Origin: Pseudomonadota bacterium | Lineage (GTDB): Bacteria > Desulfobacterota > Desulfuromonadia > Geobacterales > Pseudopelobacteraceae | Assembly: GCA_019352135.1 (NCBI GenBank) | Contig: JABBNX010000003.1 | Span: forward strand, 3,149-67,148 | Direction of reading: 5' to 3' | DNA length: 64,000 bases | In this document: in pieces, positions 8,007 through 30,791 of the stretch | How positions within the stretch are numbered: position 1 is the stretch's first letter | Layout of the letters: every line of letters begins with the position of its first letter | The notes under the pieces: model-generated | The model's input: only the letters and a program-made list of their open reading frames with translations | What the model was told of the DNA's origin: nothing | The model's database searches: none | Translations under genes and position numbers: made by a program

Positions 8007-8012
8007 CTGGTT

Positions 8013-8711: not shown

Positions 8712-8735
8712 AATATTTTCTTTCCTCATAACAAA

Positions 8736-10784: not shown

Positions 10785-11986
10785 AGTGACAGCACCAGAG
10801 AGGTAATATTTCCGCCAAAGGCAAAGGAGTTGGACATGGCAATGGTACTATCGGTCGGCACACTGCCGGCATGGCAATACTCCAGGTCGCACTCCGGGTC
10901 ACGGCCGCGGTAATTGAGCGTCTGGGGAATAATTTTCTTATTGAGTGCCAGTACGGTTGCAACGACCTCGATAGCCCCCGCTGCCCCCAGACAGTGCCCG
11001 GTCATCCCTTTGGTAGAAATGAGCGGAACCTGGGGAGCGCGCTCACCGAAGACCAGTTTCATCGCATTCGACTCAACCACATCGTTGAGCGGGGTTCCGG
11101 TGCCGTGAGCGTTAACCCAGCCGACCTGCGAGGCATCAACAGCGGCCCGCTCAAGAGCCTGGAGCATGACACCCGCCGCCGCCGTACCGCCCGGTTCAGG
11201 TGCCGTCATGTGATACGCTTCGCCCGCCAGGGCATAGCCAAGCAGAGCGCCGTACATCCGGGCGCCACGAGCCAGGGCATCGTCCTCTCGCTCCAGCACA
11301 ACGAAGGCAGACCCCTCACCCAGGGAAATTCCCTGACGATCGAGACTGAAAGGCGCACAGGGTTGGGGGTCGACCACCCGCAGCGAATTGAATCCTGCAA
11401 ACGTCAGCATTGAAAGCGTATCCGCACCGCCTGCCACCATAAGCTTCTGACGGCCGCTGGCCACCAGGTCGGCCGCCCAGCCGATAGCGGTTGCGGAGGA
11501 GGAACAGGCGGTCGTCACCGTCCCCTGATAGCCGCACAGATTGTAGGTCCGGGCGATATCCGTCGAGGTCTGGTCCGGCAGGATGCCGCGCAGCAGCGAT
11601 GGGCGCTCCTCCCGTCCCTCAAGAAGGGCTTTCAGCCAGATCTCCCCCTGGAACATGCCGGCAGCGCCACCTCCCATGGAGACCCCCATGTCATATGGGG
11701 AATAGCGGTCGGTGACGCCGCTGTCCCGAAGCGCCTGGCCGGCGGCAATGACGCCGAACTGGTCAGAACGGGACAGTTTGCGGGCAGACCGGGAATCGAA
11801 ATAATTGAGCGGGTCATACCCTTTGATCTGCGCCCCTATTTTGGCCGGAAAGGGGGATACGTCAAAGAGGTCCAACGGCTGAATGCCGCACCTTCCTGCG
11901 CAGAGCGCATCGGTAAATTCCGTCACGCTCTTTCCGACGCTGCAGAAGACCCCCAGACCGGTGATGACAACGCGTTTTCCGGTCAT
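10781..11986 (-). CDS. Beta-ketoacyl-ACP synthase II-like (FabF family)
   Basis: 401 aa. Active-site Cys in TTACSSSATA (Cys161) and His residues in AYHMTAP and NAHGTGTPLND. C-terminal SNSFAFGG. Confidence 0.9.
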   Translation of the reverse strand: MTGKRVVITGLGVFCSVGKSVTEFTDALCAGRCGIQPLDLFDVSPFPAKIGAQIKGYDPLNYFDSRSARKLSRSDQFGVIAAGQALRDSGVTDRYSPYDMGVSMGGGAAGMFQGEIWLKALLEGREERPSLLRGILPDQTSTDIARTYNLCGYQGTVTTACSSSATAIGWAADLVASGRQKLMVAGGADTLSMLTFAGFNSLRVVDPQPCAPFSLDRQGISLGEGSAFVVLEREDDALARGARMYGALLGYALAGEAYHMTAPEPGGTAAAGVMLQALERAAVDASQVGWVNAHGTGTPLNDVVESNAMKLVFGERAPQVPLISTKGMTGHCLGAAGAIEVVATVLALNKKIIPQTLNYRGRDPECDLEYCHAGSVPTDSTIAMSNSFAFGGNITSLVLSL

Positions 11987-12729
11987 ACGATACCACCATC
12001 AACAATGATAGCCTGACCCGTGATATACGAAGCCCGCTCCGACGCAAGGAACATGACTGCGGCAGCAACCTCTTCAGCTGTACCGATCCTCCCGAGGGAC
12101 GACCTGCGGACAATCTGTTCCACCACATCCTGCTTCAGGGCAGCGGTCATCTCCGTCGCAATAATCCCGGCCACAACCGCGTTGACACGTATCCCCATCG
12201 GGCCGGCCTCGCGTGCCAGCGATTTTGTAAAGCTGATCGCAGCCCCCTTGGAGGCAGAATAGTTGCTCTGCCCCTGAGTGCCGATTATCCCGGAGATTGA
12301 AGAGATGTTGACAATACTGCCGCTGCGACGTCCCATCATCTTGCGCAGACCCCACTTGCTGCAGTGAAAAAGTGGATTGATATTTGAGCGGATGACCGCA
12401 TCCCAATCATCCTCCGACATCATGGCCAGGTAGCAGTCTCTGATAATGCCGGCGTTATTCACCAGGACATCAATATGCCCGGAGGCCGCAGCGACTGCGT
12501 TGATCAATCCGGTCGCGCCCTCAGAGGTAGACACGTCAGCCTTGAACGGTGTAATCGTCCCCGGCAGGCCGTCGGCCTCTTCGGTCACAGCCCGGGCAGC
12601 TTCGTCGTTGCTCAGATAGGCGGCGAACACGGTGGCGCCTTCACGGGCAAAAGCCAGGGAGATGGCCCGGCCGATCCCCCTCGTCCCGCCGGTAACAACA
12701 ACAATTGAATCCTTGAACTCCATAACCAC
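11983..12729 (-). CDS. 3-oxoacyl-ACP reductase (SDR, FabG-like)
   Basis: 248 aa. VVVTGGTRGIGRAI cofactor motif, NNAG, and YSASKGA catalytic Tyr/Lys. Confidence 0.9.
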   Translation of the reverse strand: MVMEFKDSIVVVTGGTRGIGRAISLAFAREGATVFAAYLSNDEAARAVTEEADGLPGTITPFKADVSTSEGATGLINAVAAASGHIDVLVNNAGIIRDCYLAMMSEDDWDAVIRSNINPLFHCSKWGLRKMMGRRSGSIVNISSISGIIGTQGQSNYSASKGAAISFTKSLAREAGPMGIRVNAVVAGIIATEMTAALKQDVVEQIVRRSSLGRIGTAEEVAAAVMFLASERASYITGQAIIVDGGIV

Positions 12730-12824
12730 CCCAATGAACTAATGTACTGCGTCAAGTATACCGGTCGCACCGAAAAATGTCCAGCGTGCGGCACCTGCCG
12801 AAGTTGCGGGTATCGGCAGAGTGA

Positions 12825-14207
12825 TCAGCTGAGCGGCCGGTGGTGGCTTCGCCCGAGACCCTTGATCATCTTCCAGAGCGGTCCCTTGACCTTGAACATG
12901 CGGATTGCGTCCAGCATGGCGGAACTGGCGTTGATCTCCAGGCCGGGCGCAATCCAGTTCCTCCGTTTCATCGCTTCGGCGGTGATCAGGTCGGCGAAAC
13001 CATCCCGGATCAGCGGAGAAATATAAAAAACCGGCTCCAGCATCGAGGCGGATTCCTGTATGAGCCCCTCGTCAATAGCGGTGCGGTACAGAGCGGTATG
13101 CGGGTAGATGCGGATACCGGTCATGGCGATGACCGCCGTCGGCTCCACCTCGTCCATCAGGTCGAACGTTTCCAAAATGGTGGCGCGAGTCTCGCCGGGA
13201 CCGCCAAAAAGCATATAGTGGGCAAAATCCAGGCCGAGATCCGTGCAGAGGCGTGACGCCCTGCGCAAGTCCTCGACGGTGAATGATTTGCGCATGTTTT
13301 CCAGCATCAGCGGCGATCCGGAATCGCTGCCGAACTCCACGGCATCGCACCCGGCCGCCAGCATCTCTTCCATCAGCCCGGCGGTGATGAAGTCAGGGTT
13401 GATAAAAGCCGACCAGTTGACCGGCAGCTTCGCCGCCGTCATGGCACGGCACAGGTGTGAGGCAAAATCAGGCGGATAATTAAAGATATCATCGACAAAG
13501 TAGAGATAGGAAACGCCAAAATCGTTCGCCAGGGCGCGGATCTCGGCGATGATCTCACCGATCGGACGCAGACGCATGTTCCGCCCCTCCAGCAGCGGAT
13601 AGGTGCAGTAGATGCAGCCGAACGGACAGCCGCGCTTGGTCTGAACATTGGCCATGCCCCCTTCACGGTAATAGCGGCCCACATCAAAGAGGGTGCGATC
13701 GGGAGTGCCGGGGTTCTCTACCGGAAGCGGCGGAATAAAATCGGGCCTGCCGGGCACGACTACCCCGGGCAGCAGTGAGGGGTCACCACCACTCTCCAGG
13801 CAGTCCAGAAGCCGGGGAAGCTGCTGTTCTCCCTCTCCTGTGATGCCGTAATCGGCGCCGACCGCGGCAAGGATTTCGACCGGCAGCAGTGAAAACCCGG
13901 AGCCGCCGATGATGCTCAGGGCTCTGCCATGGATCAGGGCGACGATATCCTTCACGCCGTCAAGATAGCTGCGCGTTCCCGGCCAGGTAACGTTGTCCAG
14001 GTTGCGCAGGGAGATGACAACGGCATCGGGGTGCTGGTCGGCAAGTGCGGTGGAAATGGCCTGCGGGGGATCGGATTCGAAACAGAGGTCAAGCACGGCC
14101 AGAACATGGCCGGCAGCTGCCAGCGGCCCGGCCAGGCAGGCGAGACCGATCGGGAAGACCGGGTAGGGGTCACGCTCACGGTTGGCAGAGATCAGCAACA
14201 GCTTCAT
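12825..14207 (-). CDS. Cobalamin-binding-domain radical SAM enzyme (paralogue A)
   Basis: N-terminal B12-binding-like domain (MKLLLISANRERDPYPVFPIGLACLAG). Radical SAM triad TKRGCPFGCIYCTYP. Start set at ATG 14207, directly abutting the upstream stop; the listed extension to 14324 overlaps the thioesterase gene. Confidence 0.85.
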   Translation of the reverse strand: MKLLLISANRERDPYPVFPIGLACLAGPLAAAGHVLAVLDLCFESDPPQAISTALADQHPDAVVISLRNLDNVTWPGTRSYLDGVKDIVALIHGRALSIIGGSGFSLLPVEILAAVGADYGITGEGEQQLPRLLDCLESGGDPSLLPGVVVPGRPDFIPPLPVENPGTPDRTLFDVGRYYREGGMANVQTKRGCPFGCIYCTYPLLEGRNMRLRPIGEIIAEIRALANDFGVSYLYFVDDIFNYPPDFASHLCRAMTAAKLPVNWSAFINPDFITAGLMEEMLAAGCDAVEFGSDSGSPLMLENMRKSFTVEDLRRASRLCTDLGLDFAHYMLFGGPGETRATILETFDLMDEVEPTAVIAMTGIRIYPHTALYRTAIDEGLIQESASMLEPVFYISPLIRDGFADLITAEAMKRRNWIAPGLEINASSAMLDAIRMFKVKGPLWKMIKGLGRSHHRPLS

Positions 14208-14626
14208 GGAACTTCCAGCCACGCCAGCAGGCGCGTGACCCGCTCGGCAATCACCGGCGGCATCTGAAACTGGAGCACGCCATTCATATCGGTCAGTGCG
14301 TGGGTTGTCACGCCGGTGGCACATTTTGTACCATCCGGGCCGATAATGGTGGAGATGAATTCAAGGGTGGCGGTGCTGGTGCGCCGCAGGGTGGTCTGGA
14401 TCGTCAGTACCTCGTTAAAACGGGCCGGACGCAGAAATTTCAACTCAAGAGCAACCACCGGCCCCAAAAAACCATCGGCAATCAGCTGGAGTGCATCGAG
14501 ATCGAACTGCCCTGCCAGAGCATTGCGGCCGATTTCCATCCAGGCGACATAATGGCCGTGCCACGCCACCCGGTAGGCATCAATTTCGTTGAAACGGACG
14601 GTTATGCTGGTTTCGTGATTTTTCAT
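14204..14626 (-). CDS. 4HBT/YbgC-type hot-dog acyl thioesterase
   Basis: 140 aa. RFNEIDAYRVAWHGHYVAWMEIGR matches the 4-hydroxybenzoyl-CoA thioesterase family N-terminal motif. Confidence 0.8.
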   Translation of the reverse strand: MKNHETSITVRFNEIDAYRVAWHGHYVAWMEIGRNALAGQFDLDALQLIADGFLGPVVALELKFLRPARFNEVLTIQTTLRRTSTATLEFISTIIGPDGTKCATGVTTHALTDMNGVLQFQMPPVIAERVTRLLAWLEVP

Positions 14627-15459
14627 GTCTCGCTATCAATCCAGCGGTTGAATTTGGCGAGCGCCGAGCCGGCTCCTACCTCTTGAAACCGCGTCACCCC
14701 TCGGGAGCGGAGCGTGCGGTAGGTTGTTTCCCAATACACCGGACGACAGAGTTCATCCACCAGAAACGCCGGAATAGCGGCGGCTGTCAGGGGCGTCTGG
14801 CCGATATGCTCTACCAGCGGAATCCGTGGTGCGGAAAAGCGGTATTCCGCCACGATCCGCCGCAGCTCTCCGGCAATTGTTTCTATCAGCGGCGTGTGGA
14901 GCGGGGCGTCACAGGAAAAAATGCTCACCGAAAAGGCGCCGGAAGCCGTGGCCTCAGCCAGAGCTGCCTCCACCTTTTCCCGTTCACCAGCCAGCAGAAA
15001 ATGGCGCGAGGTGTTGTGGTTGGCGAGATAAATGCCGTGGTTGGCCGCGATATCCGCCAGCGGCCCGGAGGTCAGGCCGATGACACATCCGAGCGCATAG
15101 TCCCTATGCAACCCCATGCCCGCCATGGCTACGCCGATACGGCATGTCAACGCAAGGGCCGCCCCGCTGTCGATCGAGCCGGATGCCGCCAGTGCGGCAT
15201 AGATCCCCATGCTATGCTCGGCAATCAGGTCCGGACCGCGCCCCTGGCTCATCAGCTGGCCGGAACGATACAGGCTGACACAGACGCCGTGCAGTTGGAG
15301 CCGCACACTCTGGGTGAGGCTTGAGGCTGACGTACCGCTTTCCATCGGATTGAAACCGGTCGTACCTTGGCAGAGCAGGGCGATCTTCTGAAATTCAGGG
15401 TCGTTACTGTACGTATCGGTAAAGGCTATCGGCTGGCCGGGGTACATCCAGCAGATCAT
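14623..15459 (-). CDS. FabD-like acyltransferase (malonyl-CoA:ACP transacylase family)
   Basis: 278 aa. Nucleophile elbow AEHSMGIYAA (GHSxG variant), with upstream ...Q..... and downstream ...APLHTP motifs like FabD. It is shorter than canonical FabD. Confidence 0.7.
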   Translation of the reverse strand: MICWMYPGQPIAFTDTYSNDPEFQKIALLCQGTTGFNPMESGTSASSLTQSVRLQLHGVCVSLYRSGQLMSQGRGPDLIAEHSMGIYAALAASGSIDSGAALALTCRIGVAMAGMGLHRDYALGCVIGLTSGPLADIAANHGIYLANHNTSRHFLLAGEREKVEAALAEATASGAFSVSIFSCDAPLHTPLIETIAGELRRIVAEYRFSAPRIPLVEHIGQTPLTAAAIPAFLVDELCRPVYWETTYRTLRSRGVTRFQEVGAGSALAKFNRWIDSET

Positions 15460-16742
15460 GCTCCGTTCCTCTTGCGCCGGATGGCAGCGCGGAAACCGAG
15501 ATTCATCGGCCCAAAGACCTGTACCGAGCGGTGCAGTTTAAAGAGCCGCCGATACATGGAAGGAAATGAATAAAATGAGCGGTTAAGCCAGTCGTACCCT
15601 TCCTGAAGCTGGGCAATCGTCATCCCCTTCGGCTGGAAGTTGATATGCTCCATGTCATAGTCGCTCCAGCTGCTGGGTATAATCCGCCCTTCCGCTTCCA
15701 GGCGGCGGCGGACAGCGGTGCCGGGGTAGGGGGTCAACAGCGGAAAAATGGCCGCTTCGAGACGCGCATCCTCACAGAAACGGAGCAGTTTCGGGAAAAT
15801 TTCGGGGGTCTCGCCGTCATAGCCGAGCACAAAGGAGCCGAGGATACCGATGCCGTGGTCACGGAAGGCCTGGGCGTTTGCCATGAATGACTGGGCCCGG
15901 TTGGTGACCTTGCCCATGGCGGCCAGGGATTCCTGGTTGAGCGATTCGAAACCGACGAACATCCCCAGGCAGCCGGACTCACCGGCGGCACGCAGCAGTT
16001 CGGGGTCAGCGGCAAAATCGATCGGCGCATGGGAGAGCCACTTGAGTCCCATCCCCTTCATCCCCTGGAAGAGCGGCAGGGAATAGGTGCGATCCGCGAC
16101 GATATTGTCATCGACGAAAAAGACGAAGGCGTTGTTTTTTTTCAAACCCTGCAACTCGGCCAGCACCTGCTCCACCGGGCGTTTCCGGTACTTGCGGCCG
16201 TAAAAGGCGGTTACCGAGCAGAATTCACAGTCAAAGGGGCAGCCGCGGGTCGTCTGGATGGTGTTGGTGAGCAGATACTTCTTGCCGGTGAATATCTCGC
16301 GACGGGCAAATGGAATATCGGCCATGCTCATCATCGCATCCGGCTTGTAGGTACGCTGGAGGCTCCCCCGGCGAAAATCCGCCAGAAGAAGGGGCCAGAC
16401 AACTTCTCCTTCCCCCACCACCACCGCATCAACGTTGGTGAGCGCCTCGTCCGGCAGATTGCTGGCGTGAAAGCCCCCCATGACCACGGTCTTGCCGCGG
16501 CTTTTGAAACCGGCGGCAATCTCGTAGGCGCGTGGAGCCTGGGGGGTCATGGCGGTCAGGCCAATGAGGTCGGCATCGGTGTCGTAGTCGATTTGTTCAA
16601 AATTGTCGTCGCACAACTCCACATCCCATTCCAGCGGGGTGACGGCGGCAATCGAAGCCAGTGAGAGGGAGGGAAACTTGAAGGCCAATTCCCCCCACAA
16701 CCTCCCCTTTGGCCACCCGGGGGAGATCAGGAGTACCTTCAT
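15456..16742 (-). CDS. Cobalamin-binding-domain radical SAM enzyme (paralogue B)
   Basis: 428 aa. MKVLLISPGWP... B12-like domain, triad TTRGCPFDCEFCSVT, FVGFESL. ATGA overlaps on both sides. Confidence 0.85.
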   Translation of the reverse strand: MKVLLISPGWPKGRLWGELAFKFPSLSLASIAAVTPLEWDVELCDDNFEQIDYDTDADLIGLTAMTPQAPRAYEIAAGFKSRGKTVVMGGFHASNLPDEALTNVDAVVVGEGEVVWPLLLADFRRGSLQRTYKPDAMMSMADIPFARREIFTGKKYLLTNTIQTTRGCPFDCEFCSVTAFYGRKYRKRPVEQVLAELQGLKKNNAFVFFVDDNIVADRTYSLPLFQGMKGMGLKWLSHAPIDFAADPELLRAAGESGCLGMFVGFESLNQESLAAMGKVTNRAQSFMANAQAFRDHGIGILGSFVLGYDGETPEIFPKLLRFCEDARLEAAIFPLLTPYPGTAVRRRLEAEGRIIPSSWSDYDMEHINFQPKGMTIAQLQEGYDWLNRSFYSFPSMYRRLFKLHRSVQVFGPMNLGFRAAIRRKRNGA

Positions 16743-16996
16743 TTCTGGTGTTCCCCGATATACCCGGCCATGCTGCGCACCGAGGCAAAGACCGTTGAAC
16801 CGGTGGCGGCATCAGGGACGACGACTCCGAATTCCTTCTCCATGGCTACCACGAGCTGCAGTGCATCGATGGAGTCAAGCCCGAGCCCTTCGCCGAACAG
16901 CGGGGCGTCAGCATCAATTTCATCGGGCGACATCCCCTCGATACGCAGGCTGTCAATGATCATCTGTTTAACCTTTTCAATCAACTCATCGCTCAT
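16739..16996 (-). CDS. Acyl carrier protein
   Basis: 85 aa. Phosphopantetheine site GLGLDSIDALQLV. It is the only ACP in the operon. Confidence 0.9.
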   Translation of the reverse strand: MSDELIEKVKQMIIDSLRIEGMSPDEIDADAPLFGEGLGLDSIDALQLVVAMEKEFGVVVPDAATGSTVFASVRSMAGYIGEHQK

Positions 16997-17053
16997 GAAC
17001 TATTCCTCTCTCTGGTCCACATTTTTAAATTGGGTTAAACGGTAGTTACCTGT

Positions 17054-18004
17054 TCATCTGCCCTTTGGTTTGCCTGATTCGGTACGTCTGCCGAAAAAAT
17101 CATATAAATTGTACCATTGGTCAGGGTACGCCCGGATATATCGCTCAAACACCGCCAGCAGTTTCTCCATGCCGGAGCGGATGGCATCGCCATGTCCCCC
17201 GTGACCGCTGCAGAAAATAATCGGCTCTTCCATGATGGTCGCGTAGCGCCCTTTATCCTCCAGCAGGACAAAAACCGGAATGACCGGCGCGCCGCTGGCC
17301 AGGGAGAGATGAGCGGCCCCCACCGGGATGTTGGTCGGCCGGCCAAAGAAATCGATCAGAATGGTGTGGGATGAGCCGTCCCGATCACCGAGTATCGCCA
17401 GCACCTCGTTACGCCTCAGTGCGTTAACCGCCTCGATTATGGCAAATGGCGAGGAATCATCCCGGTCGACATAAATGAAACGGACGCCGCGTTCCTGCCT
17501 GACAGCCTCACGCAGCTCATTTACCTTTTCATCCGGCTCGCGGAACGTCAGCATGTTGATCGTATAGCCCAAATCCGCCAGACCCAACCCGCCCAGTTCC
17601 CAGCTGCCGAGATGGGGCGAAACAAGGATCGCGCCGTTACCGGCCGCCAGCGCCTGATCGAGCGTGTCACTGCTGCTGCGCCGCCCGATCATCGCCTGGA
17701 GTTTTTCTCCCTTGAGCCGCATAAACAGCATCTCATCACACCAGTTATGGCTGAACGTGCGGAAGGTTGAAAACACCAGCCGCTCCACATCATCCCTGCC
17801 GGTGACCACCTGCAGATTGGAACGCACTCCCCTCCGGGTATCAGTCAGCAGGAGGTAAAACAGGCCGCCCCAGAAAAAAGTGAACGGCGGGAACAGCCAC
17901 CGTGGTACCAGGATCGTGAACAGTTTGATAAGGAACAGATTGAAATTGCTGTAAAAGGTCACTGATATAACTCGGTATCGGCACGATAGTAGTAAGTAGC
18001 ACAT
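17054..18004 (-). CDS. LpxL/HtrB-family (lipid A late / lysophospholipid) acyltransferase
   Basis: N-terminal membrane anchor. AILVSPHLGSWELGG is the family H(x)4E/D motif. ..GDRD....IL.DFFGRP...P.G.A.L is typical of Lip_A_acyltransferases. The start is ATG 18004 (MCYLL..) or 18040. Confidence 0.8.
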   Translation of the reverse strand: MCYLLLSCRYRVISVTFYSNFNLFLIKLFTILVPRWLFPPFTFFWGGLFYLLLTDTRRGVRSNLQVVTGRDDVERLVFSTFRTFSHNWCDEMLFMRLKGEKLQAMIGRRSSSDTLDQALAAGNGAILVSPHLGSWELGGLGLADLGYTINMLTFREPDEKVNELREAVRQERGVRFIYVDRDDSSPFAIIEAVNALRRNEVLAILGDRDGSSHTILIDFFGRPTNIPVGAAHLSLASGAPVIPVFVLLEDKGRYATIMEEPIIFCSGHGGHGDAIRSGMEKLLAVFERYIRAYPDQWYNLYDFFGRRTESGKPKGR

Positions 18005-18017
18005 GCTGTGTTCATGG

Positions 18018-19373
18018 TTAAAAAAAGAGCTCCCACGCACAGAGCGCCAGCTTCCGGAACGTTAGCTTGCCCCTGCCGGCAGCCTGCTTGAACCCCTGGG
18101 TGGCCTCGTGCGAACGCCGATAAAATTTCACAAAAGCCTTGATGAGCAGAAACTGCAGGTAATGACGATTTATCAGGGGATGACGGAAAACAATGTGCAA
18201 ACCATCGTAAAACTTCCAGCGCCGGCAGAAGATGCGATCCTTGATCTCCTCATAGAGCTGTGTACCGGGATACGGGGTCAGGATGGTAAACTGGGCAATG
18301 TTGGTATTGAGCCGTACCGCCAGGTCAATCGTACTTTCCACGTCAGCGGCGGTTTCGTTCAGGTTGCCGATGATGTAGCTGCCATAGGATTCGATCCCGT
18401 TTTGCCGCAAAATATCCACTGCCCGGGTAACATCGCTGGCCGTGGTGTTCTTCCCGAGGGAGTTCAGCGTATCCTCATTACCGCTTTCAATGCCGAGATA
18501 GATGGTTGTGGAACCGGCCGCCGCCATTTTGGTGACCATGGCCGGATTTTTCACTATGGTATCAACCCGTGAAAAGTTCCACCATTTCAGGTCATAGCCA
18601 CGATCGATGATGCCGGCGGCAATCTGTTCGACCCGCGGCGGCGCAAGGGTAAAGTTGTCATCCATGAAGCAGACGGCCCGGAAACCATAGCGGTTATAGA
18701 CCTCATCCAGCTCGGCCAGCACCGATCCGGCACTGCGGAAACGCCACCCCCTGCCGAAAAAGCTTGAAGATGAACAGAAATGACAGGCGCCGGGACAACC
18801 GCGACTGGTAACAATAGGGGTGATGGGACGGCCGTCCATGCTGGCCCGGTACCGATGGAGATCCACCAGGTGCCGGGCGGGAAACGGGAGGGTTTCGACG
18901 TCAATCGGATCGGCGGCAGGGGTTTCAATCTGGTGACGCCCATCCTTGATGATCAACCCTTTTACCGCGGCAACACTATCCCGGTTTTGAAGAGCGGTCA
19001 GAAGGTTGGGAAAGGTGAATTCCCCCTCTCCCCTGACGATGTAATCAACATACCCGGAAGCAAAAATATCAGCCGCCATGAATTGGGGATGGGGACCACC
19101 CATGACCACCGGCCGGCCGGCAGCAGATACTCTGCGGGCAACGGCAAGCGCCTTGTTCGCCCTGGTCGTATCAGCCGAAATCCCGACCACATCGGCACGC
19201 CGGATATCGGCATCATCCAGATGTCCGTCATCGGCAGCCAAGTCCCGTACAACCACGCTGTGGCCAGCCTGTTCAAGGGTGGCAGCGACATAGAGCAGGC
19301 CGATGGGGGGGAGACTCAGGCCAAATGTGTTAAATACGCTGGATGATGGAGGGTTTACCAGCAGTACATTCAT
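18018..19373 (-). CDS. Cobalamin-binding-domain radical SAM enzyme (paralogue C)
   Basis: 451 aa. MNVLLVNPPSS..PPIGLLYVAA B12-like domain and triad TSRGCPGACHFCSSS. The start overlaps the upstream stop (TGATG). Confidence 0.85.
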   Translation of the reverse strand: MNVLLVNPPSSSVFNTFGLSLPPIGLLYVAATLEQAGHSVVVRDLAADDGHLDDADIRRADVVGISADTTRANKALAVARRVSAAGRPVVMGGPHPQFMAADIFASGYVDYIVRGEGEFTFPNLLTALQNRDSVAAVKGLIIKDGRHQIETPAADPIDVETLPFPARHLVDLHRYRASMDGRPITPIVTSRGCPGACHFCSSSSFFGRGWRFRSAGSVLAELDEVYNRYGFRAVCFMDDNFTLAPPRVEQIAAGIIDRGYDLKWWNFSRVDTIVKNPAMVTKMAAAGSTTIYLGIESGNEDTLNSLGKNTTASDVTRAVDILRQNGIESYGSYIIGNLNETAADVESTIDLAVRLNTNIAQFTILTPYPGTQLYEEIKDRIFCRRWKFYDGLHIVFRHPLINRHYLQFLLIKAFVKFYRRSHEATQGFKQAAGRGKLTFRKLALCAWELFF

Positions 19374-20749
19374 CAGTTGCTGCCCCTTTTTTTCGTCTTT
19401 GGCTGAAGGCCTTTGAACTCGTTTTCCCAGACCGGATCGGCAATCTCACCATAGGCGCGGGAGTAGTCATCCATGCTGTCCGCCAGTCCGGTGAAGATTT
19501 CATCTGCCCCATCATGGGTTGGATAGGCACCCTCCGAGGCGAACAGCTCCCGTCCGGCAGCAGGCTGGTCTATCAGCATGCAGGGGCGCAGCAGGTTCTC
19601 GTGTTCGCCCTGCTTTGCGCGGATTTTAGTGAAAAAGGGAGATGCCAGCGCCTCATGAATGGTTGTCCGGCGAATATTATCAACGGCAAAATGGCAGAAG
19701 ACACACGGCTCGATGTCGCCGTTGGCATTGATATGAAAATACTTGCGCCCGCCGGCCAGACAGCCGGAGATCATCGGCCCGTCGTTCCAGAAATCGATGA
19801 ACAGCATCGGCTTGGTGGCACGGTAGTCGATAACGGTTCGGCGCAGGCCATCGCGCTGTTCCGGGGTCGGCATCAGTTCCGGCTCAGGCTTGCGCCCTAC
19901 CGGTACATAGGAAAAGAGCCACATCGCAAAGACCCCTTTTTTCAGGAGCATGTCGATATAGTCGCCATTGGTGATGATGTCGGAGTTTTTGCGGGAATGG
20001 GTGAATGAACCGCAGAAAGACAGCCCCCCCTCCCTCATCAGGTCCATGGCATGCATAACCTTTTTGAAATGTCCCGCGCCGCGGCGTTCGTCGGTTTCCT
20101 GCTCATACCCTTCCAGCGAAAATGACGGCATGACGTTTCCGACCTCGGTCAGCTTCTCCACCATTTTTTCATCGATCAAGCCGCCGTGGGTAAAGACCAG
20201 GAAGGCCATGTCGCTATGCTTTTTGAATATCTCGAAAATGCCTTCCATATAAAACGGCTCACCGCCGGATATTACCGCAAAATAGACCCCCATCTCCTTC
20301 ATCTGGAGCAAGATGGAATCAACCTCCTCCAGAGAGAGCTCCAGCGACTTGTCATAATCACCGGCGTAACAGCCGTAGCAGTTCAGATTGCAGCGCATGG
20401 TAGGGCTGATGACTACGGTTGAAGGGGGATAGTAACCGTGCGCGTCGCTCCACTCCTTGCGTTTGTTGGTGCCGTTGAGCAGGTGATTGACCAACAGATT
20501 ACTGATCCATTTGTCACGCTGGTTAGGGTGCAGATCACGCAAAATACGGCGCGGGAACTCGATACTCGGATGCTTGTCCCGCACCAGACCGCGAATCCAG
20601 CGGATGCGTTCCTTGTAGTAGTCTTTCTTGGGAATCCTCTCCATCAGATGGGTCATGCGGATCAGGGTCTCATCCGATGAATTTATCGCCAGTTCCAGGA
20701 GATAGGAAAGCACCTTATCTTTGGTATAATTTTTCAGAGTGTTGATCAT
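19373..20749 (-). CDS. Radical SAM enzyme with a C-terminal Cys-rich SPASM/twitch-like domain
   Basis: 458 aa. Triad PTMRCNLNCYGCYAG after an N-terminal extension of about 100 aa. Downstream cluster GCLAGGRKYFHINANGDIEPCVFCHF. No B12 domain. Confidence 0.8.
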   Translation of the reverse strand: MINTLKNYTKDKVLSYLLELAINSSDETLIRMTHLMERIPKKDYYKERIRWIRGLVRDKHPSIEFPRRILRDLHPNQRDKWISNLLVNHLLNGTNKRKEWSDAHGYYPPSTVVISPTMRCNLNCYGCYAGDYDKSLELSLEEVDSILLQMKEMGVYFAVISGGEPFYMEGIFEIFKKHSDMAFLVFTHGGLIDEKMVEKLTEVGNVMPSFSLEGYEQETDERRGAGHFKKVMHAMDLMREGGLSFCGSFTHSRKNSDIITNGDYIDMLLKKGVFAMWLFSYVPVGRKPEPELMPTPEQRDGLRRTVIDYRATKPMLFIDFWNDGPMISGCLAGGRKYFHINANGDIEPCVFCHFAVDNIRRTTIHEALASPFFTKIRAKQGEHENLLRPCMLIDQPAAGRELFASEGAYPTHDGADEIFTGLADSMDDYSRAYGEIADPVWENEFKGLQPKTKKRGSN

Positions 20750-20764
20750 ATGAAAAGTGCCTCG

Positions 20765-21427
20765 TCACATATTACGTAAAAATGTCATGCTGATAGTAAA
20801 TGTATCGTTTATGGGCCGGTAGTGGCTGGTTGCGCGTCCATCGGCAACCCGTGCGGCAACCGGGAGGGAACCAATCGTAAAACCGCTCTTCCAGGCCTTC
20901 AGCAGGATTTCCATCTCCAGAGCGTATCCGTTTGCCTCCAGCGACAGTTTTTTCACCACGTCACCTGAATAGTACCTGAAACCGGACTGACTGTCGGTGA
21001 TCTCAAAACCGGTACGTTTCCATATGCACCAGACACCGATTCGATTCCAGAATTTACGGAGCCCGGCCATCTGTTCGAACTGATCGTGGCGGGACGCAAT
21101 CAATATACCCCACTTGCCGCTTTGTGCAAAAGTGACCAGCCTCGGGATAGCTGACATATCATGTTGGCCGTCCGCATCGATGGTGACCACGGCATCAAAA
21201 CCGGACTCGATCGCCCAGGCAAAACCGGTTTTCAGCGCAGCACCCTTACCACGGTTTTGCTCGTGTCGGAGCAGCGTCACCGGTAATCCGGCAACCAAAG
21301 CAGACGTAGCGTCGGTTGAACCATCATCCACCAGTACGACCGGCACGCCATGTTCCAGACTCTCCCGCACCACTGCCAGAATGGTTTTCTCAGCGTTATA
21401 TGCAGGAATCAGGATACATGCTGCCAC
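20765..21427 (-). CDS. Family 2 glycosyltransferase
   Basis: 220 aa. ILIPAYNAEKTI...VLVDDGSTDAT...TIDADGQHD are the GT2 (DxD) signatures. Confidence 0.85.
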   Translation of the reverse strand: MAACILIPAYNAEKTILAVVRESLEHGVPVVLVDDGSTDATSALVAGLPVTLLRHEQNRGKGAALKTGFAWAIESGFDAVVTIDADGQHDMSAIPRLVTFAQSGKWGILIASRHDQFEQMAGLRKFWNRIGVWCIWKRTGFEITDSQSGFRYYSGDVVKKLSLEANGYALEMEILLKAWKSGFTIGSLPVAARVADGRATSHYRPINDTFTISMTFLRNM

Positions 21428-22281
21428 GTGTTCAGTAACTCCTTGATGGTGGTAAATCGATACCGTTGTAACAGCCCGCTCAACCGGATGGACGCATCCG
21501 TTCGGGTTCCATAGGAGACGAACCGTTTCGGGAAGTGGAGATCAAGCCGGGGGCCGGCAGGGTCCACCTCTCGGGGATGAAGATACAGAACAGCAGGTTG
21601 ATGGGACCGGTTCAGCCCATCGATAGTCGTACAAATGGTCCTGAACGGAAAAAACCTGAATCCCCATCCGCCACCGGTCGGCAGGTTGCCGCCCCACAAT
21701 CGCGTCACCATCGGCGGGATTTCCCACAGGTCCGCTCCTTCACCGAGAAGACGGTAGGGGGTACGGCTGCCGCGGGAATTACCCACAAACGGAAGCGGGT
21801 TGAGACTTGAATCGTAGAGATACCCCTCTTCCCGCAGGATGGCAAAGGGCCAGCCGGTCTGTGCAGACAAAGACCATTGCGGCGCCCGGTATCCAAACGG
21901 GCGCTGCCCGGTCTGCTCCACCAGAATCCGTTCGGTGAGTTGCAGTTCATCCCGGAACTGCTGTGGTGTCAGATCAGACACCAGACGATGTGAATAGCCA
22001 TGGGAGGCTATTTCATGACCTGCCGAACAGATCATTCGTGCCAAATCCGGATCGTTTTCCGCCACGGAACCAAGCATGAAAAACGTGCCCTTCTGGTCAT
22101 GCCGAGAAAGCAGCGCCAGAATTCTCTCCAAGTTTCTCCGCACCCGCCATGTCCCGCGTGAAGGCACAGCCACCCCAGGCGCGCAGACATGGTACCAATC
22201 CTCCACATCGACTGTTAAAACATTGTGCGTCGTAACGTCACTCCGAGACCTGAAGATAAAGAAATAAACATTACATAACAA
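21409..22281 (-). CDS. NodB-type polysaccharide/glycolipid deacetylase
   Basis: 290 aa. LTVDVEDWYH and EIASHGYSH motifs of the carbohydrate esterase 4 family, similar to the PEP-CTERM-locus subfamily. Confidence 0.8.
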   Translation of the reverse strand: MLCNVYFFIFRSRSDVTTHNVLTVDVEDWYHVCAPGVAVPSRGTWRVRRNLERILALLSRHDQKGTFFMLGSVAENDPDLARMICSAGHEIASHGYSHRLVSDLTPQQFRDELQLTERILVEQTGQRPFGYRAPQWSLSAQTGWPFAILREEGYLYDSSLNPLPFVGNSRGSRTPYRLLGEGADLWEIPPMVTRLWGGNLPTGGGWGFRFFPFRTICTTIDGLNRSHQPAVLYLHPREVDPAGPRLDLHFPKRFVSYGTRTDASIRLSGLLQRYRFTTIKELLNTWQHVS

Positions 22282-22287
22282 ATGATA

Positions 22288-23034
22288 TCAAGTCAATACA
22301 CCGTGTTCCTCAGAAGCCCCGGTCCGCTTGCGGCACACCAGAACAATCTCATCAACACCTGCCGTGTCGGCCAGTCCAGCGACGAATTTCAATCGCTTTT
22401 GAATGAGCATCCCCAGCGGCATGAGAACCTTGTTATAGCACCACATTGCTTCCCGCCGGTGATGTTTAAGCCACCAGACCCCGAGGTCCAACAGCAGTGG
22501 GTTAGCCGGTTGCATGCCGTATACGGCACTTTTTTCGATGGCCAGACCATGGGCGGCAAGCAATGCCAGCAAATCCGCAGGATCATACCTGCGCACATGG
22601 CCCACGAATTCGTCGAATTTTGTCCAGAATCTTGTATGCAGGGGGACGGAAAAAACAAAGTAACCTCCCTCCTTAAGCACGCGACTCACCTCACCAAAAA
22701 CCCGCCGGTCATCTTCGGCATGCTCGATGACATCAAAAGCGCAGACAAGTTCAAATTTCCCAGCGCCAAACGGTAAATCACCGATGCCACCGGTGACCGC
22801 GATGCCGCCGCACTCTGTCAGCCGTTCGATCACCGGTGGGCTGATGTCAACGAAACTGGTGCCGTGGATTGGCAGGCGCGGGCGCAGACCTGGCCCTATT
22901 TCCAAGCGCGCCGGGGCAAGCGGCAGCAACGCGGAAATCAGCGGCCAGGTATTGAAACGATCAGGCCGCTGAAGATGAGACTCCGCCCAGAGAACATCAT
23001 AGAAGTCGCGGTTGACGATGGTGCTATTACGCAT
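22288..23034 (-). CDS. Class I SAM-dependent methyltransferase
   Basis: LEIGPG...FELVCAFDVIEHAEDD..VF.EVSRVLKEGGYFVFSVP is a Methyltransf_11/23-like pattern. Start ATG 23034 or 23073; the listed 23205 start overlaps the upstream rSAM gene. Confidence 0.7.
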   Translation of the reverse strand: MRNSTIVNRDFYDVLWAESHLQRPDRFNTWPLISALLPLAPARLEIGPGLRPRLPIHGTSFVDISPPVIERLTECGGIAVTGGIGDLPFGAGKFELVCAFDVIEHAEDDRRVFGEVSRVLKEGGYFVFSVPLHTRFWTKFDEFVGHVRRYDPADLLALLAAHGLAIEKSAVYGMQPANPLLLDLGVWWLKHHRREAMWCYNKVLMPLGMLIQKRLKFVAGLADTAGVDEIVLVCRKRTGASEEHGVLT

Positions 23035-24448
23035 GGTACTGGTCCTGGCGGCATTTTGCACCGTCGACTTCATGTATTGACTCCTGAAATGGTTGCTGAA
23101 AAGAACATTCATCCACATCGGAGGCCTTAAGGCGGTCATTAGGCCCCTTGCGGAGAATGTTGTAAGCCAGGTTTGTAAAGCGGCGGCCCGGATTTTTCCA
23201 GACACGGGACAGGATGGAAGGCCAGGTATACGCCTCCTTGCGCGCCTCCAGCCACCCCCGGTAGAGCTGTTCAGGCGACATCAGCTTCGGCCGGAAGACG
23301 ACTTCCGAGTGGTTGTAACGGTTCCACTCCGTGTGCAGAAGGCGCCCCTCCTGCTCGAACTGTTGAAAAAGCTTTGTTCCCGGATACGGGGTCAGCAGGT
23401 TGAATGTGGGAACACTCGCAGAACACTCCTCAACGAAGCGGAGCGTTTTTTCGAAGATGCTTTGGTCATGGTCGTCAAAACCGAAAATAAGAGACGTTTC
23501 GAGGATAATACCGGCATCACTGACCCGCTTCATAAGTTCTGCCTGAGATGTCTGCCCCGCCGATTTGGCAAGCAGGGAATACGGTCCCGTTATCGACTCG
23601 ATCCCGACGAAGAGGCCGATGCAACCGGAACGGGCGACGAGTTTGAGCAGCTCCCGGTCTTCGGCAAAACGCAGACTTGTCTGGGAGCCCCATCGTATCC
23701 CCATCTCTGCCATCCCTTCAAGGATCGGCCGTGCCTTCGCGGGATCCCCCAACAGATTGTCATCCAGAAATATCACCAGCTTGCGGGGGAAAGCGCCGAT
23801 TTCGGCGAGGATATCGGCAGGGTCGCGGTAGCGGAAACGGTTTCCGAAATAGTGCGTAACGGTGCAAAAAGCGCAGTCGTACGGGCAGCCACGGCTGGCC
23901 TGGACGGTCTGGGTTGTAAGGTACCGCTTGCCGGCCAGGATTTCTCGGCGCGGCCAGGGGACTTGGAGTTTATCATCCTGCGATATGGGTGCGCGGTATA
24001 CCTTTTCCAGCCGGCCGCCGAGAAAATCATCGAGAAGCGTGGCCATGACCGGCTCAGCCTCGCCAATGACCACTGCATCCGCATGGGTAAGAGCCTCTTC
24101 CGGCATGACCGTCGGGTGCATCCCCCCCATGATGACCGGAACCCCTTCTGCCCTGAATTGGTCGGCTATTTCGTAGGCCCGGGTCGCCTGGTGGGTCATG
24201 GCGGTGATTCCAACAAGGTCGAAATCTCTGCCGCATGGAATCGGGTCTTGGCTTTCATCGACGAGGGTCACCTCCCACTGCGAAGGTGTCACTGCAGCAA
24301 CCTGCTGGAGAGAGAGGGAAGGAAGCTGAAAATATTTTGCCCAGCCGAGCTTGTGCGTCGCAGGATAAATGAGAAGGAGTTTCGGACGAGCCTGGTGGGT
24401 GAGGCGGGATTGCGAAAGCCGTGCTTGTTTTGACGATTCTTCTGACAT
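23027..24448 (-). CDS. Cobalamin-binding-domain radical SAM enzyme (paralogue E); first gene of the operon
   Basis: Triad ASRGCPYDCAFCTVT with a B12-like N-terminal domain. ATG 24448 (MSEESSK..) is preceded by AAGGGAA at a spacing of 6-7 nt. The listed 24520 start has no RBS. Confidence 0.85.
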   Translation of the reverse strand: MSEESSKQARLSQSRLTHQARPKLLLIYPATHKLGWAKYFQLPSLSLQQVAAVTPSQWEVTLVDESQDPIPCGRDFDLVGITAMTHQATRAYEIADQFRAEGVPVIMGGMHPTVMPEEALTHADAVVIGEAEPVMATLLDDFLGGRLEKVYRAPISQDDKLQVPWPRREILAGKRYLTTQTVQASRGCPYDCAFCTVTHYFGNRFRYRDPADILAEIGAFPRKLVIFLDDNLLGDPAKARPILEGMAEMGIRWGSQTSLRFAEDRELLKLVARSGCIGLFVGIESITGPYSLLAKSAGQTSQAELMKRVSDAGIILETSLIFGFDDHDQSIFEKTLRFVEECSASVPTFNLLTPYPGTKLFQQFEQEGRLLHTEWNRYNHSEVVFRPKLMSPEQLYRGWLEARKEAYTWPSILSRVWKNPGRRFTNLAYNILRKGPNDRLKASDVDECSFQQPFQESIHEVDGAKCRQDQYHA

Positions 24449-24785: not shown

Positions 24786-25894
24786 GTGAAAGTCATTCTC
24801 CTGCACCCTTACGGCAGCAACTGGCTCGGAGGGATGAAAGACATCAGCACGGTGTTCAACCTGATGCCGCCGCTCGGTATGATGAGCATTGCCGCCGTAC
24901 TTGAACGGGCGGGCATCGACGTTGAAATAATCGACTGTTATGCAACACCACGGCCGCTTGCTGAACTGGTTGATGAAATAATCCGGCGCAGGCCGGACTG
25001 CCTCGGCATATCCACGACAACCTCCTCATTCAATGAGGGGTATCGAATCGCCGCCTCGGTAAAGGAAAAAGCGCCGCACATATTCACCCTCTTTGGCGGA
25101 GCCCACGCCTGTACCATCGGCGCGCCGCTTCTGGATTCATTTCCGGCCATTGATTGCCTGGTGATCGGCGAAGGCGAAAATACCATGCTGGAGCTGGCTC
25201 AAGCCGGTTTCAAAGGGATCGGCCAGATTCCCGGCGTCGCCTACCGCGGTGCAGACGGCAAAGGGTGGCAGAGTTCTGCGCAATCAAAGAACGCAAGGGA
25301 TTGAAGGTTACCTACAACTGCATTGCCCGCCTGGAGCATGTGGACCTGGAGCTGCTGGCGCTCCTCAAACGCTCCGGGTGCTGGCAGGTCAATTTCGGTA
25401 TCGAGTCGGGTGATCCGGAAATAGTAAAACAACATCGGAAATTTTTAGGATTGGATGAAGTGGGGCGGAAGCTGCTCATGGTGAAGGAGGCCGGCATGCG
25501 GGTCAAGGGGCTCTTTATGGTCGGCCTGCCGGGCGAGACCGAGGCAGCTATCCGCCGCACCATCGATTATGCCCTGTCTCTTCCGCTGGACGAGATCAAT
25601 GTCACGAAATTCACCCCATTTCCCGGCGCGCCGGTCTATGCCACGACCAGAGAGCGGGGAGAGTTCGAGGAGAACTGGGATCTGATGAATTGCCTGAACT
25701 TCGTTTTTGTGCCACACGGCATGACCAAACAGCAGCTGGAAGATCTCTACAACGAGTTCATCCGGCGCTTCTACCACCGCCACCGCATCCAATGGGGCTA
25801 TACTCGGATGCTGTGGAAATCCCCCCACAGTATCATGTCATTTATGCGCCATCTGCCAGAAATACTGGCTTTTGAGAAAAAACAAAAGTGGTAA
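24786..25894 (+). pseudogene. Decayed cobalamin-domain radical SAM paralogue (internal deletion plus frameshift; CxxxCxxC motif lost)
   Basis: ORF 24786-25304 encodes only the B12-like domain (MKVILLHPYG..IGEGENTMLEL..GVAYRGADGK). ORF 25154-25894, in another frame, becomes homologous only from about 25265 (VAEFCAIKERKGLKV..FGIESGD..). The roughly 85-90 aa that carry the radical SAM Cys triad in paralogues A/B/C/E are absent. Confidence 0.7.
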
Positions 25895-25926
25895 CATCAA
25901 TGCACCAATTCCACAGGAGCACTATA

Positions 25927-26517
25927 ATGAAAAATTGGAAAAAAGCCTTCATTTTTGTAGTGCTGATCATTTTTTCACGGGCATTGCCGGCGTCAGCAGA
26001 TAACACCGCCTCCACTGCGTCGGGGGAATACGGCGTCCTCACCGGTTACGGCATTTCACATATCGGCTTCGGTGCAACCCGCCATCAGGTTCAGACGTGG
26101 GACTTCATCCTGCGGGCCGGTTTTTTTCTTTCGGATGAGGTCGGCAAAGGGAGCTGGTATCAAGGTCGACATGAGATTTTACTTGAGCTCCCTTACCACA
26201 TGGCGGTAGACCATGGCGACCGCTCCATGGTGGGGGGATACGTGCTCGGCCACTGGAGATTCACCAGCATGGACAAGTTTGTACCCTACGTGTTTGCCGG
26301 AGGCGGCCCGTTGTACGTGGACCTGGGACTGCCGACGATGGGCACGAAACTCTGCTTCAGCTACCAAGGGGGAACCGGGCTGCAGTATTTCATAGACAAG
26401 AAAACCGCACTGAATTTTGAGTACCGCTATCATCACATCTCAAATGCCGGCACAGCTGAGCCTAATGAACCGATCAACTCAAGCAAGATATTGGTGGGAG
26501 TGTCATTTTACCACTAA
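25927..26517 (+). CDS. PagL-like outer-membrane acyloxyacyl hydrolase (lipid A 3-O-deacylase family)
   Basis: Signal peptide MKNWKKAFIFVVLIIFSRALPASA and alternating beta-barrel-like sequence. C-terminal FEYRYHHISNAG...ILVGVSFYH contains the family His-x-Ser catalytic pair. Start set at ATG 25927 inside the listed ORF. Confidence 0.7.
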   Translation: MKNWKKAFIFVVLIIFSRALPASADNTASTASGEYGVLTGYGISHIGFGATRHQVQTWDFILRAGFFLSDEVGKGSWYQGRHEILLELPYHMAVDHGDRSMVGGYVLGHWRFTSMDKFVPYVFAGGGPLYVDLGLPTMGTKLCFSYQGGTGLQYFIDKKTALNFEYRYHHISNAGTAEPNEPINSSKILVGVSFYH

Positions 26518-29183: not shown

Positions 29184-29403
29184 TAGTACCTCGTATCAGC
29201 AATTAACGCGTTATTTCTACATCAAATTCAGGGGAAAATTTCGAGATTTCAGAAAAAATGTCCTGCAAAACAGCAGTGGATACTACCATAAATTCTCCGA
29301 CAAGAGAACCCTATTTATACCATCTATTTTATCGGCATCGTGGCCCGACAAGCGTCAGCCTGCAACAGTCCGCCGGAACAATTTGTGCCGGCCCGCGGCT
29401 TGG

Positions 29404-30770: not shown

Positions 30771-30791
30771 CACAAAAAGGAGGTGAGTTTT

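Follow-up and report, generated by a model that had tools for sequence, protein, structure and literature searches.

An operon with five radical-SAM genes in a Geobacterales bacterium, related by sequence to anammox ladderane-type and aryl-polyene lipid clusters

The window analysed here is a 64,000-nucleotide stretch of contig JABBNX010000003.1 (assembly GCA_019352135.1, positions 3,149 to 67,148) from a bacterium of the Geobacterales. Its minus strand carries, from 24448 to 5451, one 19-gene operon in which five genes for radical S-adenosylmethionine (SAM) proteins stand among genes of type II fatty acid synthase (FAS) and polyketide synthase (PKS) character. We label the five rA (12825-14207), rB (15456-16742), rC (18018-19373), rD (19373-20749) and rE (23027-24448). 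From 5' to 3' the operon reads rE, methyltransferase (MT), deacetylase (DAc), family 2 glycosyltransferase (GT2), rD, rC, lysophospholipid acyltransferase (LPLAT), acyl carrier protein (ACP), rB, acyltransferase (AT), thioesterase (TE), rA, ketoreductase (KR), ketosynthase (KS), chain-length-factor partner (CLF), dehydratase (DH), LolA, a LolB-like protein and an MMPL exporter. An initial annotation had placed five radical-SAM open reading frames (ORFs) at these positions, within a lipid operon and alternating with ACP, AT and TE genes. All of this stands: the five lie on the minus strand, their neighbours are type II FAS/PKS-like by Pfam and NCBIfam, and the order ACP-rB-AT-TE-rA is confirmed. 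The operon probably makes an acyl chain that its radical-SAM enzymes tailor, and its sequence ties it to the ladderane-type clusters of anammox bacteria and to aryl-polyene (APE) clusters.

The Cys motifs quoted in that annotation recur verbatim, namely RGCPFGCIYC in rA (460 amino acids, aa), RGCPFDCEFC in rB (428 aa), RGCPGACHFC in rC (451 aa), RGCPYDCAFC in rE, and RCNLNCYGC followed by GC...PCVFC in rD (458 aa). The length of its orthologues, 459-460 aa, speaks for the rA start at 14207. The N-terminus of rE is uncertain: it measures 473 aa from the first plausible ATG and, given orthologues of 412-428 aa, its true start may lie further downstream. The Radical_SAM domain (PF04055) is above threshold in all five proteins (E 5e-20 to 6e-11), and the B12-binding domain PF02310, with a gathering score of 32.1, is found in rA (48.3 bits), rB (45.4), rC (85.7) and rE (52.0), so that the N-terminal B12-binding-like segments described earlier are recovered in all four; these Pfam matches are far beyond chance. 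In each of the four the PF02310 domain is N-terminal to the radical-SAM core, which is the class B architecture, and rB and rE carry DUF4070 as well. None of the five radical-SAM proteins reached the NCBIfam cut-off of a characterised equivalog (BchE, HpnR, HpnJ, PhpK, NirJ, AhbD, BzaD and TsrM-type), and none of the four B12 proteins that of MgmA. The initial annotation had allowed that hidden Markov models might not class its N-terminal domains as cobalamin-binding, or that the nearest characterised homologues might belong to an unrelated pathway with its own conserved synteny. Neither turned out to be so, as the B12 domains score by hidden Markov model, no equivalog cut-off is reached and the synteny seen elsewhere is with lipid genes.

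Calling the four B12 proteins paralogues, as had been done, was misleading. rB and rE are 41% identical and every other pair 24-28%, whereas orthologues within the Geobacterales share 55-76% (rA), 66-90% (rB), 67-86% (rC) and 62-85% (rE), with 73-93% for rD. Recent local duplication of the four genes was rejected on this ground, with 24-41% between the copies against 62-93% to orthologues elsewhere. Single-linkage clustering at 36% identity of all B12-radical-SAM ORFs in 84 related loci returned the families A, B+E and C, together with two families not in the window, here called rG: one belongs to Syntrophales, the other to Geobacter, with G. sulfurreducens among its carriers. On the proposed check of one clade against distinct subfamilies, the clustering thus favours distinct subfamilies, except that rB and rE fall together. 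Judged by these identities, the four proteins are three or four old subfamilies.

The signature gene of this cluster type is rA. It scores 379.3 bits (cut-off 360) against NCBIfam TIGR04072, 'lipid biosynthesis B12-binding/radical SAM protein' with the short name rSAM_ladder_B12, residues 2-447 aligning on profile positions 1-440 of 443. Its PF04055 match is 72.8 bits, and C194, C198 and C201 are invariant in 43 family members. Homologues of rA in public genomes already carry the TIGR04072 name. The association of this family with lipid genes such as a FabF-like KS and an ACP holds for the window operon and for loci of Geobacterales, Syntrophales, Desulfobacterales and Brocadiaceae, with Acidobacteriota as the exception. 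Close homologues (67-91% identity) come from Desulfuromonadaceae and Geobacteraceae, the exact protein also lies on a 26.8-kb metagenome contig with matching genes, and the family as a whole comprises at least 1121 clusters at 50% identity with E <= 1e-30.

After TIGR04072, the best NCBIfam matches of rA are BzaD (184 bits, cut-off 450) and the TsrM type (132 bits, cut-off 500). A profile of the 43 family members aligns with the tryptophan 2-C-methyltransferase TsrM (PDB 6WTE) over residues 5-425 (259 bits, E 7e-76), and the invariant rA motif S-L-R68-N-L-D-N aligns on V-R69-N-T-D of TsrM, so that both have an RNxD motif whose Arg is R69 in TsrM. The scores are nevertheless far below both equivalog cut-offs, and the genomic context is lipid and not tryptophan or benzimidazole. 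In TsrM, R69 lies under the cobalt, E273 ligates the unique cluster iron and E236 is placed between the corrin and the cluster, according to a 2026 review (PMC12931638). In rA, E273 is replaced by Ile or Val and E236 by a nearly invariant Tyr (Y203). Because of the replacement of Glu273, rA is expected to cleave SAM reductively, unlike TsrM. We read rA as having a TsrM-like cobalamin pocket and a free SAM-binding iron, that is, as a putative cobalamin-dependent enzyme using a 5'-deoxyadenosyl radical. The conserved Arg equivalent to R69 would be indirect support, for rA only, for the use of a cobamide.

The fifth protein, rD, had been described as a SPASM/twitch radical-SAM protein with a C-terminal Cys cluster, which is correct in a partial or twitch-like form. 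It matches the SPASM domain PF13186 with 31.0 bits (cut-off 21.5). Of its Cys after the radical-SAM motif, C330, C349, C352 and C390 are the only conserved ones, each in 38-39 of 39 orthologues, and the seven-Cys SPASM motif for two auxiliary [4Fe-4S] clusters is absent from rD. The four-Cys set would fit one auxiliary cluster, in a twitch-like or partial SPASM domain. By sequence rD is distant from named families (NirJ2 and AhbD at ~84 bits with cut-offs of 500; SkfB at E 9e-13). Its AlphaFold2 model has a mean pLDDT (predicted local distance difference test score) of 65 with a well-predicted core, and a Foldseek search with this model returned SkfB, SuiB and anSME at the top, and also viperins. 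The predicted fold resembles those three (E 1e-15, template-modelling (TM) score about 0.5-0.6), and the SPASM match and the conserved set of auxiliary-cluster Cys are further points in common. Identity to them is 19-22%, and rD differs in having no peptide substrate gene nearby, a 110-aa helical N-terminal extension and only four C-terminal Cys. An assignment of rD as a C-C coupling enzyme like Tes/GDGT-MAS was rejected, there being no PDB sequence match to GDGT-MAS and 7TOM ranking 48th by fold (TM 0.39/0.36, root-mean-square deviation 17.8). The well-conserved Geobacter 'radical SAM domain protein' GSU3454 (PMC2825233) was likewise rejected as rD, as it adjoins hemE (GSU3453).

For rB, rC and rE the best named matches are enzymes of the same B12-binding plus radical-SAM architecture: BchE, HpnR, HpnJ and MgmA/QCMT. 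The best NCBIfam model is BchE for rC (193 of 481 bits, followed by ApyD and HpnR, all below cut-off), HpnJ for rB (89 of 578) and again BchE for rE (95 of 481). These scores are only 15-40% of the BchE, HpnR and HpnJ cut-offs, and no hopanoid or bacteriochlorophyll genes lie nearby. The closest solved structures of all three are MgmA/QCMT (9CCB; PMC11796369) and AprD4, all distant, and rC additionally has distant PDB matches to OxsB, TokK and CysS. The PDB matches of rB and rE span the radical-SAM core only, so the assignment of their B12 domain comes from Pfam and NCBIfam.

The genes of the operon are tightly packed. By their coordinates, overlaps of 4 nt (ATGA-type) link ACP, rB, AT, TE and rA, then KR, KS and CLF, and also DH and LolA, and rD overlaps rC by 1 nt. 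The sole sizeable gap, of 96 nt, separates rA from KR. At 12755-12783 on the minus strand this gap holds a sigma-70-like promoter match, TGGACA-17-TATACT (10/12 to consensus, weak evidence), at the point where two modules meet that stand apart in G. sulfurreducens.

Among the other operon genes, the MT (22288-23073) is a class I SAM-dependent methyltransferase (Methyltransf_11, Methyltransf_23) of uncertain start, its ORF reaching 23205 and the gene being called as 261 aa in locus L001. The DAc (21409-22281) belongs to the polysaccharide-deacetylase family with DUF3473, reaches 227 of the 276 bits of the XrtA-type deacetylase (below cut-off), and is conserved in Geobacterales and also present in the Brocadiaceae cluster. 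The GT2 (20765-21427) is, by domain search, a short enzyme of the polyprenyl-phosphate sugar synthase type whose best NCBIfam matches, none of which reaches its cut-off, are PpgS, AglJ, the dolichyl-P hexose transferase and ArnC. The LPLAT (17054-18040), of the LpxL/PIM type and ApeD-like, matches Lip_A_acyltrans (PF03279) at 102.8 bits, and its best NCBIfam family is the PIM acyltransferase (106 of 209 bits, below cut-off). The dedicated ACP (16739-16996) has a GLDSID phosphopantetheine site and is 75-93% identical across Geobacterales. Pfam and NCBIfam identify the AT (14623-15459) as FabD/MdcH-like and the TE (14204-14626) as a hotdog, 4HBT/YbgC-like and ApeK-like thioesterase. The KR (11983-12729) is of the FabG type, and the FabF-like KS (10781-11986) retains Cys, His and His; the KS-like CLF (9741-10784) is recognised by its N-terminal KS domain alone and has other residues in place of the two catalytic His. 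The DH (9365-9772) is FabZ/ApeP-like by NCBIfam, with an ApeP-like Pfam match in its orthologue in locus L002. Domain searches assign the last three genes to a LolA-like, ApeL-like periplasmic lipid carrier (8736-9368), a LolB-like, ApeN-like lipoprotein (8013-8729) and an MMPL/RND (HpnN-like), ApeM-like lipid exporter (5451-8006). Domain searches of the operon genes found no enoyl reductase, no isoprenoid, hopanoid or bacteriochlorophyll genes, and no AMP-binding or lyase domain.

The distribution of the cluster was followed with a genome scan, one genome per species, seeded with a 12-sequence rA alignment (the 43-sequence alignment being too divergent as a seed). At least 585 loci contained a relative, and the best 80 were analysed, synteny being scored by BLAST of all locus ORFs against the window proteins; 41 of the loci, many of them truncated, are from Geobacterales. 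In this order (Geobacter, Trichlorobacter, Oryzomonas, Geomonas, Geomobilimonas and others) about 25 complete loci follow the arrangement DAc-GT2-rD-LPLAT-ACP-rB-AT-TE-rA-KR-KS-CLF-DH-LolA-LolB-MMPL. All 41 loci have rA, 37 have rB (66-90% identity) and 34 have rD. Orthologues of rE occur in 16 (62-85%, at variable positions), true orthologues of rC in only 4, with copies of 42-49% in Syntrophales, and the MT, a rare accessory gene, in 2. rA, rB and rD are accordingly the core radical-SAM genes, and rC and rE accessory. With median identities of 77% (rD), 81% (ACP) and 75% (rB), these are the best-conserved genes of the cluster. The initial annotation had thought that four sequential radical modifications of one acyl chain would be unusual for a bacterial lipid pathway. 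At the genome level the arrangement is not unusual: such clusters were described in 2009 (PMC2649909), TIGR04072 is a curated family, and 3-5 radical-SAM genes are usual in complete Geobacterales loci, those spanning the whole radical-SAM module having three in 11 cases, four in 7 and five in 7. G. sulfurreducens AM-1 (L084; CP010430.1, 2268587-2289963) also has four B12 and one SPASM gene, with rE (74%) and a divergent rG preceding DAc-GT2-rD-LPLAT-ACP-rB-AT-TE-rA. Syntrophales loci combine rC- or rD-like genes with LPLAT, ACP, AT, TE, rG, rB, rA, KR and KS, and Desulfobacterales loci are simpler, with rA and sometimes rD.

A sixth B12-radical-SAM gene (24786-25894) lies on the plus strand, divergent from the operon, and is a pseudogene. 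Its B12 domain is intact (85 bits) and its C-terminal radical-SAM half is in another frame, with ~85-90 aa lost, including the first ~58 positions of the Radical_SAM profile and the CxxxCxxC triad. It belongs to a subfamily distinct from rA-rE and rG, and its derivation from the 478-487-aa rG subfamily of Geobacter was rejected at only ~29% identity. The 87% orthologue of this gene in L005, the closest relative examined, also appears frameshifted after about residue 175. Next to the pseudogene stands a gene for a PagL-like lipid A 3-O-deacylase or outer-membrane beta-barrel (Pfam; 25888-26517, plus strand). A PagL-like gene is found beside the cluster also in the Geobacter loci L002 (16420-17007), L018 and L020, and this proximity hints at a link of the cluster product to lipid A or the outer membrane. 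Directly downstream of MMPL (2725-5329, minus strand) are a 529-aa protein with a weak HEAT-repeat match and gpsA (glycerol-3-phosphate dehydrogenase), which keep that position only in L005.

The lipid cluster lies ~15 kb from dnaA. The minus strand from 26619 to 40843 carries gyrA, a shikimate kinase gene, an rpoA-like gene, gyrB, recF, dnaN and dnaA, and the plus strand after dnaA carries yidC, mnmE, mnmG and rsmG. This is the chromosomal origin region, which takes in about 38000-42000 as well; its G+C fraction falls as low as 0.41, and the cumulative GC skew is lowest near 38-40 kb. Further housekeeping genes also lie outside the cluster. Further along the plus strand are a CofH/MqnC-type radical-SAM gene (48107-49195), probably of futalosine-pathway menaquinone synthesis and unrelated to the lipid cluster, and a type II secretion system (T2SS)- and pseudopilin-like set (50327-56637) with N-methyl motif proteins, T2SS J and K, a MshEN-domain protein and, at 52774-55486, three ORFs without any match in Pfam. 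This set is followed by a gene for the R subunit of a type I restriction enzyme (59803-62634, plus strand).

With some confidence, we favour a model in which the radical-SAM enzymes tailor an acyl chain made by an APE-like type II FAS/PKS, and this chain is then attached to an anchor lipid and exported to the outer membrane, as the work of a ladderane-type cluster. According to this model, the AT would load the cluster's own ACP, and KS/CLF, KR and DH would extend the chain on it. As the cluster encodes no enoyl reductase, it would have to borrow one from housekeeping metabolism or else produce enoyl or polyenoyl intermediates. The radical-SAM enzymes would next act on this chain. rA would most likely use cobalamin to methylate, or to form a C-C bond at, an sp2 carbon of an unsaturated intermediate or a carbon next to it, the most economical guess given its relationship to TsrM and BzaD, the two known Csp2-methylating cobalamin enzymes. 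rB, rC and rE would most likely be further cobalamin-dependent C-methylases or rearranging enzymes, and rD, with its one predicted auxiliary cluster, would most likely perform a dehydrogenation or a cross-link. That the substrates are ACP-bound, as had been proposed initially, is suggested by the conserved, translationally coupled ACP-rB-AT-TE-rA block. The TE and the LpxL/PIM-type LPLAT would move the finished acyl group to the anchor lipid, whose aminosugar would probably be supplied by the ArnC/PpgS-like GT2 and the deacetylase, and the MMPL pump and the LolA- and LolB-like proteins would carry the product to the outer membrane, a route that has also been proposed for aryl polyenes.

Several points weigh against this model. 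Holophagales and Thermoanaerobaculia (Acidobacteriota) have a pair of rB (65-68%) and rA (52-55%) only, amid unrelated genes, which argues that an ACP context is not obligatory; rA and rB together look like a self-contained functional unit. The KR-KS-CLF-DH-LolA block is not adjacent in G. sulfurreducens AM-1, where a MaoC dehydratase and unrelated genes are found instead. From this order the cluster appears to be built of two separable modules, and the radical-SAM module may use chains made elsewhere. In the window, the promoter-like site between rA and KR is compatible with two transcription units. Cobalamin binding by rA, rB, rC and rE is itself predicted from sequence, for rB and rE from Pfam and NCBIfam domain matches, and such domains can be without cobalamin: AprD4 and ArsL group with class B by sequence and have remotely Rossmann-related domains, but bind none (PMC12931638). 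Neither cobalamin genes nor a cobalamin riboswitch were found in the window by gene annotation or by Rfam at the gathering threshold. Methylation, cyclisation and desaturation are not reaction types that sequence would tell apart for the individual enzymes. Finally, none of the clusters of this type has a known product, and heterologous expression of the anammox genes was fruitless (PMC10139942). As for the Acidobacteriota pairs (L037, L040, L041, L044, L045, L049, L054 and L061), no ACP, KS, AT, TE or LPLAT gene is nearby, and the neighbours in L037 are a Ser/Thr kinase and unannotated ORFs. Among the best 120 CLF homologues listed, all at least 60% identical, none is from G. sulfurreducens.

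A different destination for the acyl chain would be lipid A. According to this alternative, which we hold to be unlikely, the LpxL-family LPLAT places a radical-SAM-tailored secondary acyl chain on lipid A, GT2 and deacetylase make an undecaprenyl-phosphate aminosugar that decorates it in an Arn/Flm-like manner, and PagL removes a primary chain, the whole amounting to a remodelling of lipopolysaccharide. The PF03279 match of the LPLAT, the resemblance of GT2 to PpgS, ArnC and dolichyl-P sugar synthases, the membership of the deacetylase in the ArnD-type family and the adjoining PagL-like gene all agree with it, and lipid A has been suggested as the anchor of aryl polyenes too (PMC8253772). However, the GT2, deacetylase and LPLAT matches are well below equivalog cut-offs, the best-scoring family of the LPLAT being the PIM acyltransferase and not LpxL. 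PagL is adjacent in only 3 of the 41 related loci and is transcribed divergently, and an MMPL/LolA/LolB-like route would be superfluous for lipid A, which travels via MsbA and Lpt.

Somewhat less probable still is that the radical-SAM enzymes leave the KS/CLF product alone and have as their substrate ordinary membrane lipids, isoprenoid lipids or something other than a lipid, their clustering with the KS/CLF genes serving co-regulation only. The Acidobacteriota pairs that lack FAS genes and the detached KS module of G. sulfurreducens AM-1 are what one would expect in this case, and nearly all characterised lipid-modifying radical-SAM enzymes use isoprenoid lipids (PMC13459092). The operon has no isoprenoid or hopanoid genes, however, and the ACP, AT and TE genes alternate with rB and rA in a run of 4-nt overlaps, an association kept in Geobacterales and found rearranged in Syntrophales; few genes of the cluster are as well conserved as the ACP.

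Returning to the tailoring of a KS/CLF-made chain, one may speculate further on the product. Tentatively, and with less confidence than in the pathway itself, we suggest that the cluster makes an undescribed class of outer-membrane lipid or glycolipid, a polyketide-like chain with several radical-installed modifications such as methyl branches, rings or C-C cross-links. In this speculation rA, rB and rD would share chemistry with the first steps of ladderane formation in anammox bacteria, and the accessory B12 proteins (rC, rE, the rG types and the degenerate sixth) would make the lipid differ from one lineage to another. The variable accessory set (rC, rE, the two rG types and the pseudogene) looks like the variation of tailoring enzymes in natural-product clusters, and it would predict lineage-specific variants of one lipid scaffold. 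If this is true, the function of the 'ladderane' radical-SAM family becomes genetically testable for the first time, as G. sulfurreducens has the radical-SAM module. Geobacter, G. sulfurreducens included, is generally regarded as genetically tractable, and the division into core and accessory genes indicates the first targets for knock-out. The size of the rA family makes it a large body of uncharted lipid biochemistry in anaerobes. Radical-SAM tailoring is undemonstrated for any type II FAS lipid cluster, and according to a 2026 review it has been proposed for fatty-acid-type (ketoacyl) lipids only in the case of ladderanes and the Jaw5 product (PMC13459092).

That the cluster makes ladderane (concatenated cyclobutane) lipids themselves, as the antiSMASH label and the original TIGR04072 name would have it, is very improbable: rA does pass the TIGR04072 cut-off and does have orthologues (41-44%) in Brocadiaceae clusters that share DAc, KS/CLF, a SPASM protein, ACP, DH, MMPL and GT2, but ladderanes are restricted to anammox Planctomycetota (PMC2649909, PMC9902471) and were not found in Desulfotalea despite its syntenic cluster (PMC2649909), domain searches of 5451-24448 found neither the phytoene-desaturase-like amine oxidase nor the AMP-ligase of Brocadiaceae locus L066, the anammox locus lacks rB, rC, rE, AT, TE, LPLAT and the LolA/LolB-like genes that the window adds, and NCBI has since renamed TIGR04072 generically.

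The relationship to the anammox clusters is nonetheless evident from the sequences. FAS II clusters with SAM-radical enzymes were described in silico in Kuenenia in 2009, with similar ones in D. psychrophila, Geobacter and Pelobacter carbinolicus (PMC2649909), and the antiSMASH label 'ladderane' is given to clusters of this sort, of unknown function, in Desulfobacterota and numerous further phyla (PMC9902471). Like the window, the anammox clusters of the kuste3335-3352 and kuste3603-3608 types have an rA orthologue, a KS with a catalytically dead KS partner, a dedicated ACP and a FabZ/FabA-like DH, and they also share a SPASM-type radical-SAM protein, a DUF3473 deacetylase, GT2 and MMPL. The Brocadiaceae loci L066 and L071 run DAc, KS, CLF, KS, AMP-ligase, a 376-aa SPASM radical-SAM gene, rA, ACP, a FabA-like DH, a methyltransferase, MMPL, the amine oxidase and GT2. 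The SPASM protein of the window is only 26-27% identical to its anammox counterpart, however, and ladderanes are not known from hosts of the window type. The anammox enzymes are uncharacterised, their radical-SAM enzyme could not be produced heterologously and these bacteria have no genetic system (PMC10139942); for the Geobacter cluster we found no experimental characterisation in the literature.

The non-radical-SAM half of the operon, in turn, matches the parts list of the aryl-polyene clusters almost one-to-one at the level of sequence families. In the apeA-R cluster of E. coli (PMC8253772) the counterparts are ApeO/C for KS and CLF, ApeQ for KR, ApeI/P for DH, ApeE/F for ACP, ApeK for TE, ApeD for LPLAT, ApeJ for the glycosyltransferase, ApeL for the LolA-like protein, ApeM for the RND/MMPL pump, ApeN for the LolB-like protein and ApeB for MT. 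Neither cluster encodes an enoyl reductase, and aryl polyenes have been proposed to be joined to an anchor lipid of the outer membrane and exported in a Lol-like manner (PMC8253772). The window differs in lacking ApeH (aryl-starter activation), ApeG and ApeA, in having an extra AT, a deacetylase and five radical-SAM genes, and in matching the flexirubin- and APE-specific NCBIfam models only below cut-off. Set beside its anammox and aryl-polyene relatives, the window cluster is a typical, radical-SAM-rich example of a widespread and already annotated 'ladderane-type' lipid cluster, and not a new kind of system.

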